In this document: piece by piece, positions 12,921 to 64,000 of the stretch
Layout: every line of letters begins with the position of its first letter
Numbering within the stretch: position 1 is the first letter of the stretch
Source of the DNA: a virus
Direction: 5' to 3' (one strand)
IMG/VR virus record: IMGVR_UViG_3300042691_019786
Length of the DNA stretch: 64,000 bases
The notes under the pieces: generated by a model
Databases searched by the model: none
The model's input: only the letters and a program-made list of their open reading frames with translations
Told to the model about the DNA's origin: nothing
Program-made: the position numbers and the translations under genes

Positions 12921-12996
12921 TATTAAATATATGGTTTTTTTAAAAAGTTTAAATTTATACTACAAATGTACGAACTATTTTTACATTTGTCAAGTT
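12921..12996 (-). promoter_or_regulatory. Bacteroidetes-type sigmaA promoter (TTGACA...TACATTTG) plus TATATTTAAT element upstream of leader 1
   Basis: Matches the -33/-7 consensus; nearly identical to 55161-55235. Confidence 0.75.
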
Positions 12997-21155: not shown

Positions 21156-21156
21156 G

Positions 21157-21228
21157 TACAGCGTGTTGGAATCGAACCAACGTCCCCCACTTCTATAGAG
21201 TGGACTCTACCACTGGAGCTAACGCTGT
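21157..21228 (-). tRNA. Atypical tRNA, anticodon ATA
   Basis: Cloverleaf; ccact-ctATAga-agtgg; no nucleotide 26. Confidence 0.55.
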
Positions 21229-26859: not shown

Positions 26860-27189
26860 TTACTTTTCATCAGAACCGAACCACTCGTTGTATATTGCTT
26901 GAGCTTCTTCCAACTCCATTTCTTTAAGAGCAATCTCCATTTTTGTTGAGTGTAACTCACGTACCCATAATTTAGCATCAAAGTCTTTTGAACCTGGACG
27001 TAAAGAATACGTATTGTCTGGCGCTAAGTCAGTTAGGTTAGCTAACTTGTTTTGTAACTCTAATTTTTCTTTCTTCAATGCTTGAACGAAAGATTCTACT
27101 TCTAATACAGTAGTGTCAGCTAACATTTTAGCTCTTGCTTCTTTGATTTCAGCGTTAGATGCTGATAACGTTTTTACAAACTTACTCAT
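26860..27189 (-). CDS. Hypothetical coiled-coil protein
   Basis: ORF after a promoter motif. Confidence 0.65.
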   Translation of the reverse strand: MSKFVKTLSASNAEIKEARAKMLADTTVLEVESFVQALKKEKLELQNKLANLTDLAPDNTYSLRPGSKDFDAKLWVRELHSTKMEIALKEMELEEAQAIYNEWFGSDEK

Positions 27190-27453
27190 TTTATTTACTT
27201 TTTAAATTTATACTACAAATGTATGGATAATATTTTAATAATCCAAATATTTTTCAACTTTTTTTTTAATCTAAATAAATGTCGTGGTATTCAATAGCAT
27301 ACGCATCTATCATCGCACCTATTTCAAAATAATAATAGAACATAGTTTCACTATGTGAATGTTCTAACATACTAATAACGTAATTAGCAAGTATCTGTAA
27401 TAGTTTTATTTTAAATTCTTTTTTCATATTACAAATATACATTAAATAATTGA

Positions 27454-27642
27454 TTAATCCAAATTTTCTTCTTCGTTTTCTTTTAAAACTTTGTTACCTT
27501 TCGTATAAGGTGGGTCAAATACACAGTGACGACATCCACTGCCGCAACAAGTTCCTCTTTTCTTTAAATAATGTTCTGTGTATATGATTTTACCTTTTTC
27601 TAAGTAATAATCCTTACCTTCTTCAAAACTAAATTTTTCCAT
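27454..27642 (-). CDS. Small Cys-rich protein (DUF5522-like)
   Basis: DYY.E.G...T..Y..KRG.CCGSGCRHC; start at MEKFS because the longer ORF overlaps a tRNA. Confidence 0.75.
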   Translation of the reverse strand: MEKFSFEEGKDYYLEKGKIIYTEHYLKKRGTCCGSGCRHCVFDPPYTKGNKVLKENEEENLD

Positions 27643-27643
27643 G

Positions 27644-27717
27644 TGGAACAGAAGAGAATCGAACTCTCCACTCTCTCCTTGCAAGGGAGAAACGCCAGCC
27701 TTGGTACATGCTGCCCC
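27644..27717 (-). tRNA. tRNA-Ala(TGC)
   Basis: tctcc-ctTGCaa-ggaga; G3:U70. Confidence 0.88.
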
Positions 27718-27790
27718 AGATAAATGAAGAAACCACGGTTTTACGGTGAATTACCAACTTCATTTTTATTTTAGACTTTTAAAAGTCAAG

Positions 27791-27862
27791 CGGTCTATGA
27801 GAGAATCGAACTCTCACCACAGCATAGACAGTGCCGTATCCTAGCCATTGGACCAATAGACC
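27791..27862 (-). tRNA. tRNA-Asp(GTC)
   Basis: Loop ctGTCta; G73. Confidence 0.88.
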
Positions 27863-28021
27863 AAATAAAACACCCAGTTACACGATTTGTTCTACACCAA
27901 ACTCAACACTTCGAACAAATCCCTTCAACTAACTACTCGTTTGGTTCTTTCGTTAGTCTCCCCCTCCTATCTCTAGGTTTAGGGTTAGAAGCCTACCAGT
28001 CTTACCTCACTAAGTGTTTTG

Positions 28022-28095
28022 TGGAGGATATCGGAATCGAACCGATGACCCCTTGCGTGCAAGGCAAGTGCTCTAGCCAGCTGAGCTAATCCCCC
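28022..28095 (-). tRNA. tRNA-Ala(TGC)
   Basis: cttgc-ctTGCac-gcaag; G3:U70. Confidence 0.92.
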
Positions 28096-28187
28096 TTTAT
28101 AGGTTTGGTAACTATTCTCAAGTTTCGAACCTCTTAATAGCTTTTACATCTCCACAATCGCCAAACCACGCAATTGTTTACCATGGG

Positions 28188-28259
28188 CGGAACTAGGGGG
28201 AATCGAACCCCCATCTTCTGATAGACAGTCAGACATCGTAGCCGTTGGACCATAGCTCC
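28188..28259 (-). tRNA. tRNA-Asp(GTC)
   Basis: tctga-ctGTCta-tcaga. Confidence 0.9.
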
Positions 28260-28331
28260 TTATATTCGGTGGGAACACTATATCATCCGCTCATAGAGTC
28301 TGTCAATAATATAGGTTCATCACCTCACTTG

Positions 28332-28402
28332 TATTGGGTACGGGATTCGAACCCGTGTCAACCGCTTCACTGCGGCCATCCTATCCACTAGACGAACCCA
28401 AC
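28332..28402 (-). pseudogene. tRNA-like gene (Glu/Asp-type body) with a 6-nt anticodon loop
   Basis: gccgc-agtgaa-gcggt; other arms intact. Confidence 0.55.
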
Positions 28403-28472
28403 AACCGACTCAATCAGTCTGCAAACCTTTATCATCGGCTCTCTTGCAAGTGTTGCAGCACTCGCTTGATAG

Positions 28473-28544
28473 TACTCCCAGAGAGAATCGAACTCTCATT
28501 ACCAGATTGAAAACCTGGGGTCCTAACCGTTAGACGATAGGAGC
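28473..28544 (-). tRNA. tRNA-Glu(TTC)
   Basis: ccagg-ttTTCaa-tctgg. Confidence 0.88.
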
Positions 28545-28615
28545 GTGTTATCTGTCTTTCCAGATTGTCATACTCATCCTCTCCACCGATACGTAACTAT
28601 AAGTGCGAGCGTTTG

Positions 28616-28687
28616 CATTCCGTGAGGGATTCGAACCCTCGCCTTCACTTAGAAAGAGTGACGTGTTAACCCCTTCACTAACGGAAC
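28616..28687 (-). tRNA. tRNA-Glu(TTC)
   Basis: tcact-ctTTCta-agtga. Confidence 0.88.
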
Positions 28688-28698
28688 ATTTAATTTTG

Positions 28699-28771
28699 TG
28701 AGAAGGGTGGGATTCGAACCCACATGGCTGGATTTTCAGTCCAGTGCATTGACCAACTTTGCTACCTTCCC
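28699..28771 (-). tRNA. tRNA-Phe(GAA)
   Basis: ctgga-ctGAAaa-tccag. Confidence 0.9.
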
Positions 28772-28776
28772 ATTAT

Positions 28777-28809
28777 AGTGCGATGCTCTACCAACTGAGC
28801 TATCTGTCC
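28777..28809 (-). pseudogene. 5' half of a tRNA, truncated at the anticodon loop
   Basis: GGACAGA-TA-GCTCAGTTGGTAGAGC-A-TCGCA-CT, then stops. Confidence 0.7.
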
Positions 28810-28996
28810 ATTGTTTTAATTTCACATTGCAAATGTATTAATAATATTTTTAATTTGCAAATATTTTTTTATTTTTTTTTCTAATCTTTCAAAGAACGTT
28901 TTCTTTAATTTTGTTTTACAAATGTATGAACTATTTTTTAAACTTCCAAATTTATTTGTAATATTTTTTTATTTTTTTTTTCAAACCTATATAAAC

Positions 28997-29027
28997 AAAA
29001 AAAGGTTGACTGTTTAGGTCAACCTTT
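28997..29027 (-). terminator. Attenuator terminator 2
   Basis: AAAGGTTGAC-ctaaaca-GTCAACCTTTTTTT; AGGTTGACCT also pairs with AGGTCAACCT in the leader. Confidence 0.85.
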
Positions 29028-29049
29028 CAAATATAGTATAGTTACTTAA

Positions 29050-29139
29050 TTAACTACATACATAGGTTGACCTCCCTAGGCTAAAATCGGCCTCGGCTGC
29101 GAAGAAGTCAAATTCAAATATGTTATTAATTGTTCTCAT
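29050..29139 (-). CDS. Leader peptide 2 MRTINNIFEFDFFAAEADFSLGRSTYVCS
   Basis: Run FEFDFFAAEADF; downstream tRNAs are Phe, Glu, Glu, Asp, Ala, Asp, Ala. Confidence 0.88.
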   Translation of the reverse strand: MRTINNIFEFDFFAAEADFSLGRSTYVCS

Positions 29140-29204
29140 TTTTTATCTTTATTAATTAAATATACACTAATATACTAAAAGTTCGTTTATTTGTCAAGTT
29201 TTTT

Positions 29205-29708
29205 TTATAAATTATCGTTTTTTTCTTCTTTAAATATTTTAACGCTTGTAGGTCCTACCTCAAATGCGTAACCTTTTTCATTAAGTCTAGATTTATTATT
29301 CTCTACAATGTTTTTATATATAAAATCTTTTTGACCTTTTGAACCTTCCTTATCTTGACCATTAATAATAATTAAGAAAGGTTCATATTCTGATAAAAAT
29401 TGTAATAAAGCTTCACCAACAGTAGATAAAATTTTAAAATACGCTTTAGTTGTTGTTTTAAATTTTTGAATCATATTATTACCAACAGAAAACGCTAAAA
29501 CATAAGTTTTTTTATTTGACACTAAATCAATAAAATCTATTTTAACGTCATAACCAGATTCTTCGTCAAATGAAATCTCATAATCATCACCATACTTTAT
29601 TATGTTAAAACCACCTTCTTTAATATAAGGTGGATAATAACTTAAATTACCAATTTCATTAATATTATCTAGATTTTCCCTTAATAATTGTTTTATACGT
29701 TTTTTCAT
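29205..29708 (-). CDS. Hypothetical late protein (IKQLLRE N-terminus), paralog of 31368-31856
   Basis: Shared YF.IL.TV.EAL.QFL and KGQKD.IY motifs; TATTTAT upstream. Confidence 0.7.
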   Translation of the reverse strand: MKKRIKQLLRENLDNINEIGNLSYYPPYIKEGGFNIIKYGDDYEISFDEESGYDVKIDFIDLVSNKKTYVLAFSVGNNMIQKFKTTTKAYFKILSTVGEALLQFLSEYEPFLIIINGQDKEGSKGQKDFIYKNIVENNKSRLNEKGYAFEVGPTSVKIFKEEKNDNL

Positions 29709-29746
29709 ACTTATAAATATAGTAACACTATTAAAAAACTTAGTTG

Positions 29747-29830
29747 TACGGATAGTCAGACTCGAACTGACACGCATATTTCAGCAAATGCTTCTAAGGC
29801 ATTCGGGTCTACCAATTCCCCCATATCCGC
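29747..29830 (-). tRNA. tRNA-Leu(TAG)
   Basis: aatgc-ctTAGaa-gcatt; long variable arm. Confidence 0.9.
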
Positions 29831-29835
29831 ATATG

Positions 29836-29915
29836 TAGCCCGAGAGGGAGTCGAACCCTCACCCCGAAGGACTGGAGCTTAAATCCAGCGTGTATACCAA
29901 TTTCACCATCGGACC
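29836..29915 (-). tRNA. tRNA-Leu(TAA)
   Basis: ctgga-ttTAAgc-tccag. Confidence 0.9.
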
Positions 29916-29923
29916 GTTTATTG

Positions 29924-29996
29924 TAGGGGTAGAGGGATTCGAACCCCCGACCTATTGCATGTAAGGCAATTGCTGCTACCGCTGAGCTATACCCCT
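29924..29996 (-). tRNA. tRNA-Val(TAC)
   Basis: attgc-ctTACat-gcaat. Confidence 0.9.
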
Positions 29997-30188
29997 ATTT
30001 TTTATCTTTAATCATATTTGTTGCACAACAATCATATAGTTCTGCTATGTTTTTCTTTCCAGGTACATTTAGATTATCCAGTAACCCACTATCAATCCAT
30101 TTCTGAATTATTTCTTCACGTATGTTTTTCATATGTTCAATATTGTCTGATATTGAATGACCTAAGTTTTCCATGTTCTTAATTTTTG

Positions 30189-30259
30189 TTGGACTGGGAA
30201 TTTCGAAATCCCGACTTCTGCCATGTTAAAGCAGCACTCTGCCTCTGAGTTACAGTCCA
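30189..30259 (-). tRNA. tRNA-Val(AAC), unusual A34
   Basis: ctgct-ttAACat-ggcag. Confidence 0.7.
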
Positions 30260-30271
30260 ATATGCTAGGTT

Positions 30272-30622
30272 TTACCCTAGCTTTATAAATGTTTCATTCT
30301 TGATGGCTTTGCTTATCCATCTAGCTAATTCAGAACCTCTGATTTCAGCTTCAAAACTAGTTGTACCTAAATCACTTGATAATTGAATATTCAACTGGCC
30401 ATCATTAGCTGATTCTATTGTTTTTATTGGAAATTGGTATAATTCACCCATAACTACGATGTTGTAATACAAATTACCAGCAATGTAGTGACTAAACGTT
30501 GCCATATTCTTAGACTTCATTAAGTCTTTTTTGATTTCTATTTCGTTAAGCATAACCATTTTCTTTTTTCCATTTATCATGCATTTGATTAATTGTATGG
30601 TAAGGACTTCCTTCACCTTCAA
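30272..30622 (-). CDS. Hypothetical protein
   Basis: ORF inside a tRNA operon; start probably MLNEIE. Confidence 0.55.
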   Translation of the reverse strand: MKVKEVLTIQLIKCMINGKKKMVMLNEIEIKKDLMKSKNMATFSHYIAGNLYYNIVVMGELYQFPIKTIESANDGQLNIQLSSDLGTTSFEAEIRGSELARWISKAIKNETFIKLG

Positions 30623-30866
30623 TTATTTCATCAAACCCATTTTCTTTTGTTATTACAGACTCTTCTGATTTAATCGCACCTCTGTACTTATCACCATAGC
30701 TACCAGTAACAGTTTTTGATGCTGGGTCGATGTCGCCCCAAGATGTTCTCCAACTTCTTGGTTCGATGTACTCAATGTAATATTTTTTTCCAGTTTCTGG
30801 GTAGAAAACTACCTCTCTTCCAGTTTCCTCTCTGTTAACTAGGAAGTCTTTTCTTACGTCTGTCAT
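30546..30866 (-). CDS. Hypothetical phage protein
   Basis: TGK.Y.IE.I...WGDIDPA.K...G.YG.KY.G pattern. Confidence 0.7.
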   Translation of the reverse strand: MTDVRKDFLVNREETGREVVFYPETGKKYYIEYIEPRSWRTSWGDIDPASKTVTGSYGDKYRGAIKSEESVITKENGFDEIIEGEGSPYHTINQMHDKWKKENGYA

Positions 30867-31072
30867 AACACTTGTTTTTACTTTCTTTTAGTCTTTAACA
30901 ACTTTTTTATTATTTTACCCCAATTGAAATTACTTTCCAATTTGTTTACGTTTGGTCTAAGGTATTTTCTAGACCCTTCCATTTTTCCGCTAATCACTGT
31001 TCTAGTGGTTATTTTGTCGTTGTTTGTTTCCATACTCTTTTTTTTACTTTTATATTATTATTTTATCTTTTG

Positions 31073-31143
31073 AGGCATCGACTGGATTCGAACCAGTGTG
31101 GGAGGTTTTGCAGACCTCTGCCTAGCCACTCGGCCACGATGCC
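31073..31143 (-). tRNA. tRNA-Cys(GCA)
   Basis: gaggt-ctGCAaa-acctc; U73. Confidence 0.92.
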
Positions 31144-31147
31144 AAAT

Positions 31148-31180
31148 AAAAAAGGCCTATCAGTTATTTGATAGGCCTTT
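31148..31180 (-). terminator. Attenuator terminator 3
   Basis: AAAGGCCTATCA-aataac-TGATAGGCCTTTTTT; alternative pairing with the leader end GGTGGGCT..GTATGTT. Confidence 0.85.
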
Positions 31181-31203
31181 CGTATGTTTATTTTATGACT
31201 TCT

Positions 31204-31278
31204 TTAACATACATAGCCCACCACGTTTACCACTAGTAAACATAAAAGTAACGCTGATTGTGTGTAAAAAGTTTTCAT
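31204..31278 (-). CDS. Leader peptide 3 MKTFYTQSALLLCLLVVNVVGYVC
   Basis: Run LLLCLLVVNVV; downstream tRNAs are Cys, Val, Val, Leu, Leu. Confidence 0.88.
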   Translation of the reverse strand: MKTFYTQSALLLCLLVVNVVGYVC

Positions 31279-31367
31279 AGTTTTATTCTTTTTTATTATT
31301 AAATATATCACATCTATTAAATGTTATACAAATGTACGACATTTTTTTAGATTTGTCAAGACTTTTT

Positions 31368-31856
31368 TTAATTATTTTCTATTTTTTTTAAAGCTGGTGA
31401 ATCTAAAGGGTCAGCTAGTTCATAACCTAACGCTCTTAGTTCAGCAGCATTTTTTTCTATTACTTGATGATAGATGTTATCTTTTTGACCTTTCTTGCCT
31501 CTAGCGTCAGCACCAGCTAAATCAACATAATCTGGTTGAACTTCTTCTAAAAATTGCATAAGCGCTTCTTTAACTGTTGCTAAAATTTGAAAATAATGTC
31601 TAACATCAGTTTTATCAACAGAAATAGTTCTACCATCAACACCAAAACTAAAACTATATGACGTGTCATCCATAGGGTTAACATACGCTGCAATATTTAT
31701 ATTTTTATCTAATACCTCATCGTAAAAGAATGTTTCGTAATTATTACCGCTAAATTTATGAAAATGAAACTGACCTTTTTTATATCTTGGATTGCTTAAC
31801 TCACCAACTTCAGATATTAAACTTTCTCTTAGTAATTCTTTTATTAATTTCTTCAT
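31368..31856 (-). CDS. Hypothetical late protein (LIKELLRE N-terminus)
   Basis: Paralog of 29205-29708. Confidence 0.7.
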   Translation of the reverse strand: MKKLIKELLRESLISEVGELSNPRYKKGQFHFHKFSGNNYETFFYDEVLDKNINIAAYVNPMDDTSYSFSFGVDGRTISVDKTDVRHYFQILATVKEALMQFLEEVQPDYVDLAGADARGKKGQKDNIYHQVIEKNAAELRALGYELADPLDSPALKKIENN

Positions 31857-31905
31857 ATTAATAAATATATTGACAAATTGAAAATTAATCGTTATAATTA
31901 TAATT

Positions 31906-32028
31906 ATGGGATATGTTTATTTGTTATTTTGCGTCAATAAAGACGGTAGTGAAGGTTATAAGATTGGTATTACCAAGAATGACCCAAATAAACGTGTAAA
32001 GCAATTGCAGACTTTTCACAAATTATAG
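31906..32028 (+). pseudogene. Truncated N-terminal copy of the T5orf172-like gene
   Basis: MGYVYLL...YKIGITK...KRVKQLQT, then stop. Confidence 0.7.
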
Positions 32029-54150: not shown

Positions 54151-54729
54151 TTATTTATTCTTACCAGCGTATGTTTCAGTTTGTGAATGACAATTAGGAC
54201 ATAAAAAACGTAAATTTTCTATTCTATTATCATTATTTATACCGTTAATATGGTCTATTTGTAATATTAGTTTACCACCCATCCATTCACCAGTATTACC
54301 ACAACTTACACATTTATACTCTAATAAATTACTTCTTAACACTCTATTCTTTAAATGACCAGAATTATATTGTGAATTTTCACAAAATATTTCAGAATCA
54401 CTATATTTTACCTTAGTAACGTTTCTTCTAGGGTTACCTTTATATAAATCATTATCTATTCCATATAAATCAAAATACCTTTTTAACGTTCTATAATTAC
54501 CAGCTTTTAGTGTTAAACCCATTTTTTCTAACACTTCAGCTTTAGAATTTGAAGATTCTATTAAAGGTTTTAATTCTTCAAAACTCCATTTATGATAATA
54601 TTTTTTAGGTTTAAGACCATATTTATCTGCCCAATATCTTATAGTCGTTAATGATTTATTAGTTTTTTTACTTATTTGTCTTAAAGATAAACCTTCTTTA
54701 AGAAGTTTTTCTAATTCTATTTTTTCCAT
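54151..54729 (-). mobile_element. HTH-HNH homing endonuclease
   Basis: C..CG...DHING...DNR.ENLR.LCPNCH. Confidence 0.9.
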
Positions 54730-54786
54730 ATTTATGTTTTTATATAAATATAGAATAATAGTTCAAAAAGTAAATATCACTTTAAA

Positions 54787-54821
54787 AATCTAGCACTCTA
54801 ACCAACTGAGCTAACGCCACC
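54787..54821 (-). pseudogene. 5' half of a tRNA-His-like gene, truncated at the anticodon loop
   Basis: GGTGGCGT-TA-GCTCAGTTGGTTAGAGT-G-CTAGA-TT, then the HNH promoter. Confidence 0.7.
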
Positions 54822-55001
54822 GTCTATTGTAACAAATATTATTATGTTACCGTTTTCTTTTTTAAATCTTAGGTCACCGTTGTAACCCATTTGTTTTGCT
54901 TTTTCTTTATACTCGTCAACTATTTCATCAAAGTTTTCGTTAAACTTTTTTACTTTTACTTTTCCGAGTGGTCTTACTAATTCTTCCATAGTTATAAGCA
55001 T

Positions 55002-55155: not shown

Positions 55156-55265
55156 TTTTATATTAAATATATCGTTTTTTCTAAAAAGTTTAAATTTATA
55201 CTACAAATGTACAAACTTTTTTTCTATTTGTCAAGTGTTTTTGTAATTATTTTTTTAATTTTTTC

Positions 55266-59671: not shown

Positions 59672-59723
59672 AACTTTTTTTTAATAAATATATCAATAAT
59701 AATGCCAAAGTAAACATTATTTG

Positions 59724-59794
59724 TGGTCTTAGAGGGAATCGAACCCTCACTATCGGTTTTAGAGACCGTTACGCTGCCGTTACATCATAAGACC
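59724..59794 (-). tRNA. Amber suppressor tRNA (CTA)
   Basis: Cloverleaf; acggt-ctCTAaa-accga; own promoter motif at about 59806. Confidence 0.88.
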
Positions 59795-63510: not shown

Positions 63511-63790
63511 AAGATGGTTTTTTGTGTTTTTTCATCCCAGCGGATTAACCCTTTTTACGTCTTCGGCTACGCTTTGGCGAGAGTCTACTGTTATTCGACT
63601 ACATCCTACTTGCACCTATTGGGGTGGTTGTGACGTGGTTTTTGTTTTAATTGGAAACCTAACCAATTTTGTTTAATTCCGTTGCAGTAAAAACCATCCG
63701 AGTCCTTCTTTCAAAGGTCATATTGTCTTTCTGGCATACCAACTAAACTCTCATAGTAATTGTATCTGTTTTGGTTGCAGAACCCATCTT
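63511..63790 (-). ncRNA. ~280-nt RNA closed by a CTGCAA-variant stem
   Basis: AAGATGG-GTTCTGCAA...CCATCTT with a nested second motif; follows a promoter and boxA. Confidence 0.5.
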
Positions 63791-64000
63791 TTTAGATAAT
63801 ATTTTTAATATGTAAAGAACGTTGTTTTTAATTATATTACAAATGTACTAATAAATATGTGGTTTGTCAAGTAAAATCAAAAATATTTTTAATTTATTTT
63901 TTTGTACCACCCATTTCATTCTGTTTATCGTTTGTAAGTTCCTCTAAAACAACTAAAACGTTATGTTTAGTCGTTAAATCATGAATCACATTAACAACAT

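Follow-up and report, generated by a model that had tools for sequence, protein, structure and literature searches.

Does a short reading frame whose codons name four amino acids control the genes for the corresponding tRNAs that lie behind it? The question is raised by a 29-codon ORF within a 64 kb stretch of phage DNA (the window), which a first-pass annotation had read as an attenuator. This reading is supported by a short ORF, a cognate codon run, a terminator and a mutually exclusive antiterminator that are conserved in relatives, and by the recurrence of the design in three other cassettes. With better-than-even confidence, we propose that the element acts as a ribosome-mediated (leader-peptide) transcription attenuator of phage tRNA genes.

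The window is AT-rich (GC ~31%) and carries 34 tRNA genes, and its long ORFs are almost all encoded on the minus strand. A window scan found 41 Bacteroidota-type promoters (TTG, 17-21 nt, TAnnTTTG) on the minus strand and 6 on the plus strand, and most of these matches are directly 5' of ORF starts. Promoters of the Bacteroidota have a -33/-7 consensus, and mRNAs of this phylum are without Shine-Dalgarno sequences (PMC6847099). Because the promoters in the window are of this type, its source is evidently a large uncultured phage with a predicted Bacteroidota-type host. A gene neighbouring the cassette is 99% identical to a gene on a 205,931-bp IMG/VR contig, and a megablast comparison of positions 27500-31500 with deposited phage genomes found no close relative, the sole match being to tRNA-Leu. 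The tRNAs called by ARAGORN in the window include one with the anticodon CTA (amber-suppressor-type) and one with the anticodon ATA (Tyr).

The leader ORF contains the control run that had been described as twelve consecutive Phe, Glu, Asp or Ala codons. The run is present at this length and is the longest stretch restricted to these residues in all six frames of the window, the runner-up having 7 residues. The frequency of the four-residue set is 0.13-0.16 per frame in the window, from which the chance expectation for a 12-residue run anywhere in the window is estimated at roughly 1e-5. The ORF has its own start and stop behind a promoter, and its codon cluster, which is 8-13 codons long in relatives, would report on the products of the genes proposed to be regulated.

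Six of the 12 run positions have a minor synonymous codon. Both synonymous codons are used for Phe, Glu and Asp, all of which can be read by the phage tRNAs. GCC accounts for 2% of the Ala codons in the long ORFs of the window versus 2/3 of those in the leader, and it is no standard cognate codon of tRNA-Ala(UGC). Rare Leu codons are likewise used in the leu leader of E. coli, and rare codons in the run would raise the sensitivity of a sensor. The GCC bases of the run also belong to a small hairpin, P1.

The leader promoter is of the Bacteroidota type and can alternatively be read as TTGACA-17-TATATT. Its -7 box is TATATTAG versus TATATTTG in a close relative, L019 (relatives are designated by L numbers), and has A where T is expected, at a position where T is near-invariant in the consensus (PMC6847099). 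The 5' UTR includes an element, TATATTTAAT, that is common to the relatives and to four cassettes in the window. In many relatives, a GGGG...CCC mini-hairpin is found between this element and the ATG; the window phage is without it.

An intrinsic terminator (-11.9 kcal/mol) separates the ORF from the tRNA genes, and a terminator is found in this place in every variant (-11.7 to -17.2 kcal/mol). The 5' arm of the terminator, region 3, can pair instead with region 2, whose last base is 11 nt (fewer than four codons) before the stop codon. The first-pass annotation had claimed a perfect 10-bp antiterminator a few codons ahead of the stop, and we confirm it: the two segments are complementary at all 10 positions, and their duplex energy of -17.6 kcal/mol is reached by none of 1500 random 24-mers from the genome and by none of 500 shuffles. 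It is the strongest antiterminator of all variants. The complete structure has three tiers, comprising an outer helix (region 2 with the terminator 5' arm), a middle helix and, as its core, an inner hairpin, TAGTTA/TAACTA, that holds the stop codon. This antiterminator excludes the terminator, and geometry predicts that the choice between them depends on the ribosome.

Two further pairings are found within the ORF. Region 1, which covers codons F-D-F-F, is a putative anti-antiterminator because it can pair with region 2. In the window copy this pairing has an energy of -13.3 kcal/mol (shuffle p = 0.02); it reaches p = 0.01 in L227 and is not above shuffles in the other relatives. Hairpin P1, just ahead of region 2, is a possible pause hairpin. 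An Rfam scan of 28997..29139 found no leader family at E<=1, and the T-box model (RF00230) had no match in 27000..32000 at the same threshold.

Features of the F/E/D/A attenuator, its tRNA cluster and related sites in the window
Feature	Position	Strand	Basis or remark
Leader promoter, TTGACAAAT, 14 nt, TATATTAG	29167..29197	-	Bacteroidota-type -33/-7, one mismatch to TAnnTTTG
5' UTR element, TATATTTAAT	29155..29164	-	common to four cassettes and relatives
Leader ORF, 29 codons + TAA, MRTINNIFEFDFFAAEADFSLGRSTYVCS	29050..29139	-	ATG and stop kept in ~15 variants
Control run, 12 codons, Phe/Glu/Asp/Ala only, FEFDFFAAEADF	29083..29118	-	six-frame scan
Region 1, putative anti-antiterminator, TTTGACTTCTTC	29101..29112	-	duplex energy
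Small hairpin P1, CCGAGGCC...GGCCTAGG type	29075..29096	-	predicted in most of 12 folded variants
Region 2, antiterminator 5' strand, AGGTCAACCT	29064..29073	-	complementarity, duplex energy
Inner hairpin, TAGTTA/TAACTA, holds stop codon	29039..29056	-	fold; same in all 15 variants
Region 3, antiterminator 3' strand and terminator 5' arm, AGGTTGACCT	29017..29026	-	fold, complementarity
Three-tier antiterminator	29073..29017		fold
Region 4, terminator 3' arm, GTCAACCTTT + T-run	28997..29011	-	fold
Terminator hairpin + T-run	29028..29000	-	-11.9 kcal/mol
Internal promoter 1, TTGGAAG...TACATTTG	28919..28949	-	promoter match; 3' of terminator
Internal promoter 2, TTGCAAA...TACATTTG	28830..28860	-	promoter match; ~60 nt 5' of tRNA-Phe
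tRNA-Phe (GAA)	28698..28771	-	ARAGORN, Rfam
tRNA-Glu (UUC) x2	28687..28615, 28544..28472	-	ARAGORN, Rfam
tRNA-like gene, 8-nt anticodon loop CAGUGAAG	28331..28402	-	ARAGORN, Rfam 45 bits
tRNA-Asp (gtc)	28259..28186	-	ARAGORN, Rfam
tRNA-Ala (UGC)	28095..28021	-	ARAGORN, Rfam
tRNA-Asp (gtc), second	27862..27790	-	ARAGORN, Rfam
tRNA-Ala (UGC), second, degenerate	27643..27714	-	ARAGORN only
DUF5522 gene	27642..27454		adjoins second tRNA-Ala
Leader 1, MKTTYMTYQPKQYTKGGQPQSTG...	12911		tRNAs Pro, Pro, Gln, Tyr, Thr, Gly, Gly, further on Lys, Lys (set PQYTGK)
Leader 2, MRTINNIFEFDFFAAEADF...	29139		tRNAs Phe, Glu, Glu, Asp, Ala, Asp, Ala (set FEDA)
Leader 3, MKTFYTQSALLLCLLVVNVVGYVC	31278		tRNAs Cys, Val, Val, Leu, Leu (set CVL)
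Leader 4, MRTINIHMISINNWRRNSFH...	55154		tRNAs His, Trp, Ser, Ile, Asn, Arg, Arg (set HWSINR)
Other copies of TATATTTAAT, approximate	12921-12930, 31286-31295, 55164-55173	-	
Paralogous genes directly 5' of leaders 2 and 3	29205-29708, 31368-31856	-	weak DUF6934 matches
Phe_leader-like segment, Cys/Val/Leu cassette	31146-31267	-	Rfam, structural resemblance only
tRNA 5'-half-like sequence, GGCGTTAGCTCAGTTGGTTAGAGT...	~54785-54822	-	
ORF with HNH-like motifs	54151-54729	-	motifs spotted by eye
Promoter with -33 box TTGACAAAC	63840-63870	-	
14-codon ORF, MGSATKTDTITMRV	63743-63787	-	
tRNAs with anticodons CTA and ATA	59723-59794 and 21156-21228	-	ARAGORN

Behind the terminator, Phe, Glu, Asp and Ala tRNAs are encoded on the same strand as the leader. 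The downstream canonical set had been given as exactly Phe, Glu x2, Asp x2 and Ala x2. All seven are called with the anticodons gaa, ttc, gtc and tgc, and this part of the description stands with the reservation that the distal Ala gene is degenerate: its acceptor stem includes a C.C mismatch, its D-stem is almost absent, and the Rfam tRNA model gives no hit to it at E<=1. It adjoins the start of a DUF5522 gene. A second correction is that an eighth, tRNA-like gene lies inside the cluster. ARAGORN calls this gene His|Ser with anticodon gtga, and it is located between Glu and Asp, where the relative L027 has a normal tRNA-His. The same odd gene, with the same gtga call, is found in L241, and an unassigned tRNA call occurs at this place in L192/L193. 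The gene may be either a His tRNA in decay or a decoder of four-base codons.

The two internal promoters that had been placed at about 28830 and 28920 are indeed good matches, located within the 229 nt that separate the terminator from tRNA-Phe in the window lineage. Both have the TTG-N19-TAcaTTTG form found 5' of most window genes. Because of these promoters and the imperfect -7 box of the leader, the attenuator of the window phage probably adds to basal transcription rather than gating all of it. In eight related loci, only 9-17 nt and no promoter separate the terminator from the first tRNA. Read-through is therefore the sole route to the tRNAs in these loci, and termination must be conditional or leaky.

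About 15 different versions of the F/E/D/A leader, all from related uncultured phages, were retrieved when viral and metagenome contigs were scanned for patterns. Some or all of the Phe(gaa), Glu(ttc), Asp(gtc) and Ala(tgc) tRNAs are found 3' of every version for which downstream sequence is available. Thirteen variants were retrieved with a pattern that fixes an AAEAD core, so the conservation of this core is partly by selection. A smaller sample was obtained with promoter or UTR patterns (L123, L131, L139, L027 and L059), and these leaders, found by promoter or UTR alone, contain the same run. A scan of viral contigs for TATATTTAAT...ATGARAAC returned mostly noise and recovered the unbiased leaders L027, L059, L052 and L113. 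When the leader core was compared with genome contigs, the matches listed included only chance ones in GC-rich bacteria.

Relatives differ in the run by synonymous substitutions (TTT/TTC) or by changes inside the set (E to D, D to A, A to E, or an added E-F); L059, for example, has AAEED through an A-to-E change and is still inside the F/E/D/A set. The few changes out of the set are N in L131 and G in L277. Indels in the run and in the tail of the ORF are 3, 6 or 12 nt long. The N-terminal M-K/R-T-x-x-N-I-F is conserved as peptide, and in the distal third of the ORF it is the RNA that is conserved and not the peptide. Three different reading frames of the retained GGTCAA occur (R-S-T, G-Q or V-K), and a 1-nt indel among relatives shifts the frame of the tail with the motif retained. 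Both the ORF and the structure elements are kept with minor substitutions in L019, L117, L241, L270 and L297, which are separate metagenome contigs. The correspondence between codons and tRNAs is not complete: most relatives' leaders have Asn codons, with or without a tRNA-Asn in the cluster, and extra Pro, Cys and Met tRNAs in the relatives' clusters have no matching leader codon.

When the 3' arm of the terminator is omitted, 15 of 15 variants fold into the three-tier antiterminator, with z from -1.5 to -5.8. The outer helix is strong or moderate in L019, L192, L206/L284, L227 and L277, and weak in L131, L225, L205 and L196; in L131, L205 and L196 it comprises 5-6 bp and is no better than shuffles. 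Compensatory changes between region 2 and the terminator 5' arm are found in L206/L284 (GGGATGAGA with TCTCATCC), in L059 (GTGGTCGG with CCGACCAC) and in L227 (GGTCAAG with CTTGACT). Because most terminator arms carry a TTGACC-like core, a matrix of duplex energies separates own from foreign pairs only weakly (-10.9 vs -10.1 kcal/mol), and the covariation therefore rests on few lineages with different stems. RNAalifold gave no consensus for the antiterminator segment because its helices are out of register in the MAFFT alignment used. The structural evidence used here consists of per-sequence folds and duplex energies.

The F/E/D/A leader is one of four such cassettes in the window. Each comprises a promoter, TATATTTAAT, a leader that starts with M-K/R-T, and a terminator. 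The other three resemble the 29139 cassette in promoter type, in TATATTTAAT, in the M-K/R-T start, in a matched run and in a copy of the terminator 3' arm inside the ORF; the 29139 cassette differs from them in its amino-acid set. The promoter of the other three is cTTGACAAAT, 14 nt, TACATTTG, and an imperfect -7 box and two internal promoters before the first tRNA are found in the 29139 cassette only. For the four leaders, the cognate fraction is 0.69, 0.43, 0.52 and 0.70 with their own tRNA blocks and 0.03-0.32 with the other blocks. The true assignment of leaders to blocks is the best of 24 possible. The four sets jointly cover 19 amino acids without overlap, leaving out Met.

Inspection of the DNA 5' of tRNA-Arg(tct) and of both tRNA-Met genes showed no Met leader. 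A 14-codon ORF, MGSATKTDTITMRV, is found about 400 nt 5' of a tRNA-Met, behind a promoter whose -33 box is similar (TTGACAAAC, not TTGACAAAT); the ORF is without a Met run and without an obvious terminator.

Several other features are located in or near the cassettes. Directly 5' of leaders 2 and 3 are two paralogous genes that have weak DUF6934 matches and the common motifs MKKxIKxLLRExL and KGQKDxIY. The repeated gene-plus-cassette layout suggests that a larger module was duplicated. A segment of the Cys/Val/Leu cassette scores 29.9 bits with the Rfam Phe_leader model (E = 0.05, gathering score 55), a structural resemblance only. Between the terminator of attenuator 4 and tRNA-His, a sequence like the 5' half of a tRNA is found just upstream of an ORF with HNH-like motifs, and it may be the remnant of a tRNA gene disrupted by an endonuclease gene. 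An intron-split tRNA at ~54820 was rejected, as the intron mode of ARAGORN found none.

From the anatomy, conservation and covariation of the element, we infer leader translation, coupling of ribosome and polymerase, a direction for the switch and candidate physiological triggers. Transcription would begin at the leader promoter, and the 29-codon leader would be translated as RNA polymerase moves on. With Phe-, Glu-, Asp- and Ala-tRNAs plentiful, the ribosome would reach the stop codon and occupy or unwind region 2 and the stop-codon hairpin. By geometry, a ribosome at the stop would cover about -17 to +12 nt. The middle helix, the inner hairpin and the 3' portion of region 2 all fall in this span, and the terminator could thus form where the antiterminator could not. 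Region 3, thus freed, would pair with region 4 and end the transcript.

If, instead, the twelve F/E/D/A codons are decoded slowly, the ribosome would stall upstream (the run is nt 22-57 of the ORF and region 2 is nt 67-76), covering region 1 and leaving region 2 free. Regions 2 and 3 would then pair into the three-tier antiterminator, and polymerase would enter the Phe, Glu, Asp and Ala tRNA genes. The tRNAs made would relieve the stall, providing negative feedback on tRNA supply. Candidate triggers are codon demand, decay of host tRNAs during infection and tRNA-cleaving defences. A shortage of amino acids would register as a stall in the same way as a shortage of tRNA. In the window phage, the attenuated transcript would add to the transcripts of the two internal promoters.

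These promoters also allow a different account of the window copy, in which it contributes little or is a relic, essentially all transcription of the cluster starts at the internal promoters, and the leader transcript mostly terminates whatever the tRNA supply. We regard this as unlikely, but as deserving weight: both internal promoters match the form seen 5' of most window genes, the leader -7 box departs from that of L019, and the promoter unit looks tandemly duplicated in the window lineage. Against it stand the strongest antiterminator of all variants (10 bp, -17.6 kcal/mol) beside an intact ORF, run and terminator, and the minor extent of the substitutions in the five separate contigs. 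Relatives without internal promoters argue, in addition, that the element is not dispensable in general. Alternately, translation of the leader might control the terminator without sensing four tRNAs, either as a general gauge of translation or coupling (including a Rho-type route) or as a reversed switch in which a stall leads to termination. The pairing of regions 1 and 2 is not conserved, the outer helix is weak in some relatives, and 11 of 12 variants folded up to region 3 without a ribosome default to the antiterminator, so that the switch reports whether a ribosome reaches the stop in time. Yet a general gauge needs neither a run limited to the four amino acids of the downstream tRNAs nor four cassettes that divide 19 amino acids without overlap. 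For the reversed switch, the difficulty is that region 2 follows the run and is covered by, or adjoins, a ribosome terminating at the stop codon, an arrangement that predicts read-through on a stall. Both forms seem improbable to us.

Two further readings are less likely still. One, in which the product of the small ORF is a working micro-protein or a peptide that arrests ribosomes through its sequence, with the hairpin simply its terminator and the tRNA match incidental, accords with the conserved N-terminal peptide. It is nonetheless very improbable, given that the C-terminal third changes frame among relatives while the RNA motif is kept, that the four paralogous ORFs have unrelated middles, each mirroring its own tRNA block, and that the chance expectation for the run is ~1e-5 per window. 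Small ORFs are, of course, many in AT-rich DNA, and the gene upstream of the leader (29708..29205) needs a terminator; a chance ORF beside the ordinary terminator of this gene is nevertheless already contradicted by the comparative data, and its probability is negligible. Against it stand the uniqueness of the run in the window, a promoter that separates the ORF from the upstream gene, conservation of the ORF in many contigs and covariation of the antiterminator. An attenuator sensing four tRNAs remains the reading that we prefer.

The regulated genes of known leader-peptide attenuators are, to our knowledge, amino-acid biosynthesis or synthetase genes in every case, and here the downstream genes are tRNAs. 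This output is the point of novelty of the element and no ground to reject an attenuator mechanism. A literature search found no paper on attenuators of tRNA genes, and the elements, if they act as proposed, would be the first known. Attenuation would thereby be extended to viruses, to Bacteroidota-type hosts and, as a new class of output, to genes for RNAs of the translation machinery.

We know of little work that addresses the control of phage tRNA expression. What phage tRNAs do is itself debated, and the proposals include codon compensation, replacement of decaying host tRNAs and escape from tRNA-cleaving defences (PMC10264068, PMC11464382, PMC11555353). A wider proposal, to which we give an even chance, is that a large freshwater phage clade runs its tRNA set as an on-demand regulon, in which four codon-matched attenuators for 19 amino acids each open their own block on slow decoding. 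The phage would then measure tRNA supply and correct it, with a built-in viral sensor that replaces short tRNAs under codon demand, host shut-off or tRNA-cleaving defences. Because the element is modular and only ~200 nt long, it could also serve as a compact sensor of codon-specific translation stress.

Three known systems are useful for comparison. The T-box (RF00230), typical of Firmicutes, binds uncharged tRNA directly through one specifier codon and involves no translation. As is proposed for the phage leader, it chooses between terminator and antiterminator according to a specific tRNA pool and controls genes for aminoacyl-tRNA supply. In contrast, the phage leader has an ORF with a multi-codon run and gives no T-box match.

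The pheM leader of E. coli pheST places Phe-tRNA synthetase under attenuation control. It resembles the phage leader in its run of Phe codons, and the pheST product is a decoding component, which closes a loop on charged-tRNA supply. Whereas pheM senses one amino acid and controls a synthetase, the phage leader would sense four and has tRNAs as its output. The pheL leader of pheA is discussed elsewhere (PMC3082878). The Rfam Phe_leader model is without a match on the F/E/D/A element.

Among multivalent enterobacterial attenuators, the thr leader responds to Thr and Ile, that of ilvGMEDA to Leu, Val and Ile, and that of ilvBN to Val and Leu. The phage leader has no sequence or Rfam relationship to these leaders, and its region 1:2 pairing is weak in relatives. 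It has in common with them a short leader ORF whose run mixes the regulatory amino acids and a mutually exclusive terminator and antiterminator, and the position of the ribosome, which decides the structure in the thr and ilv leaders, is proposed to do so in the phage. The phage leader differs in that the genes under its proposed control encode tRNAs rather than biosynthetic enzymes, and in that it belongs to a phage of a predicted Bacteroidota-type host.
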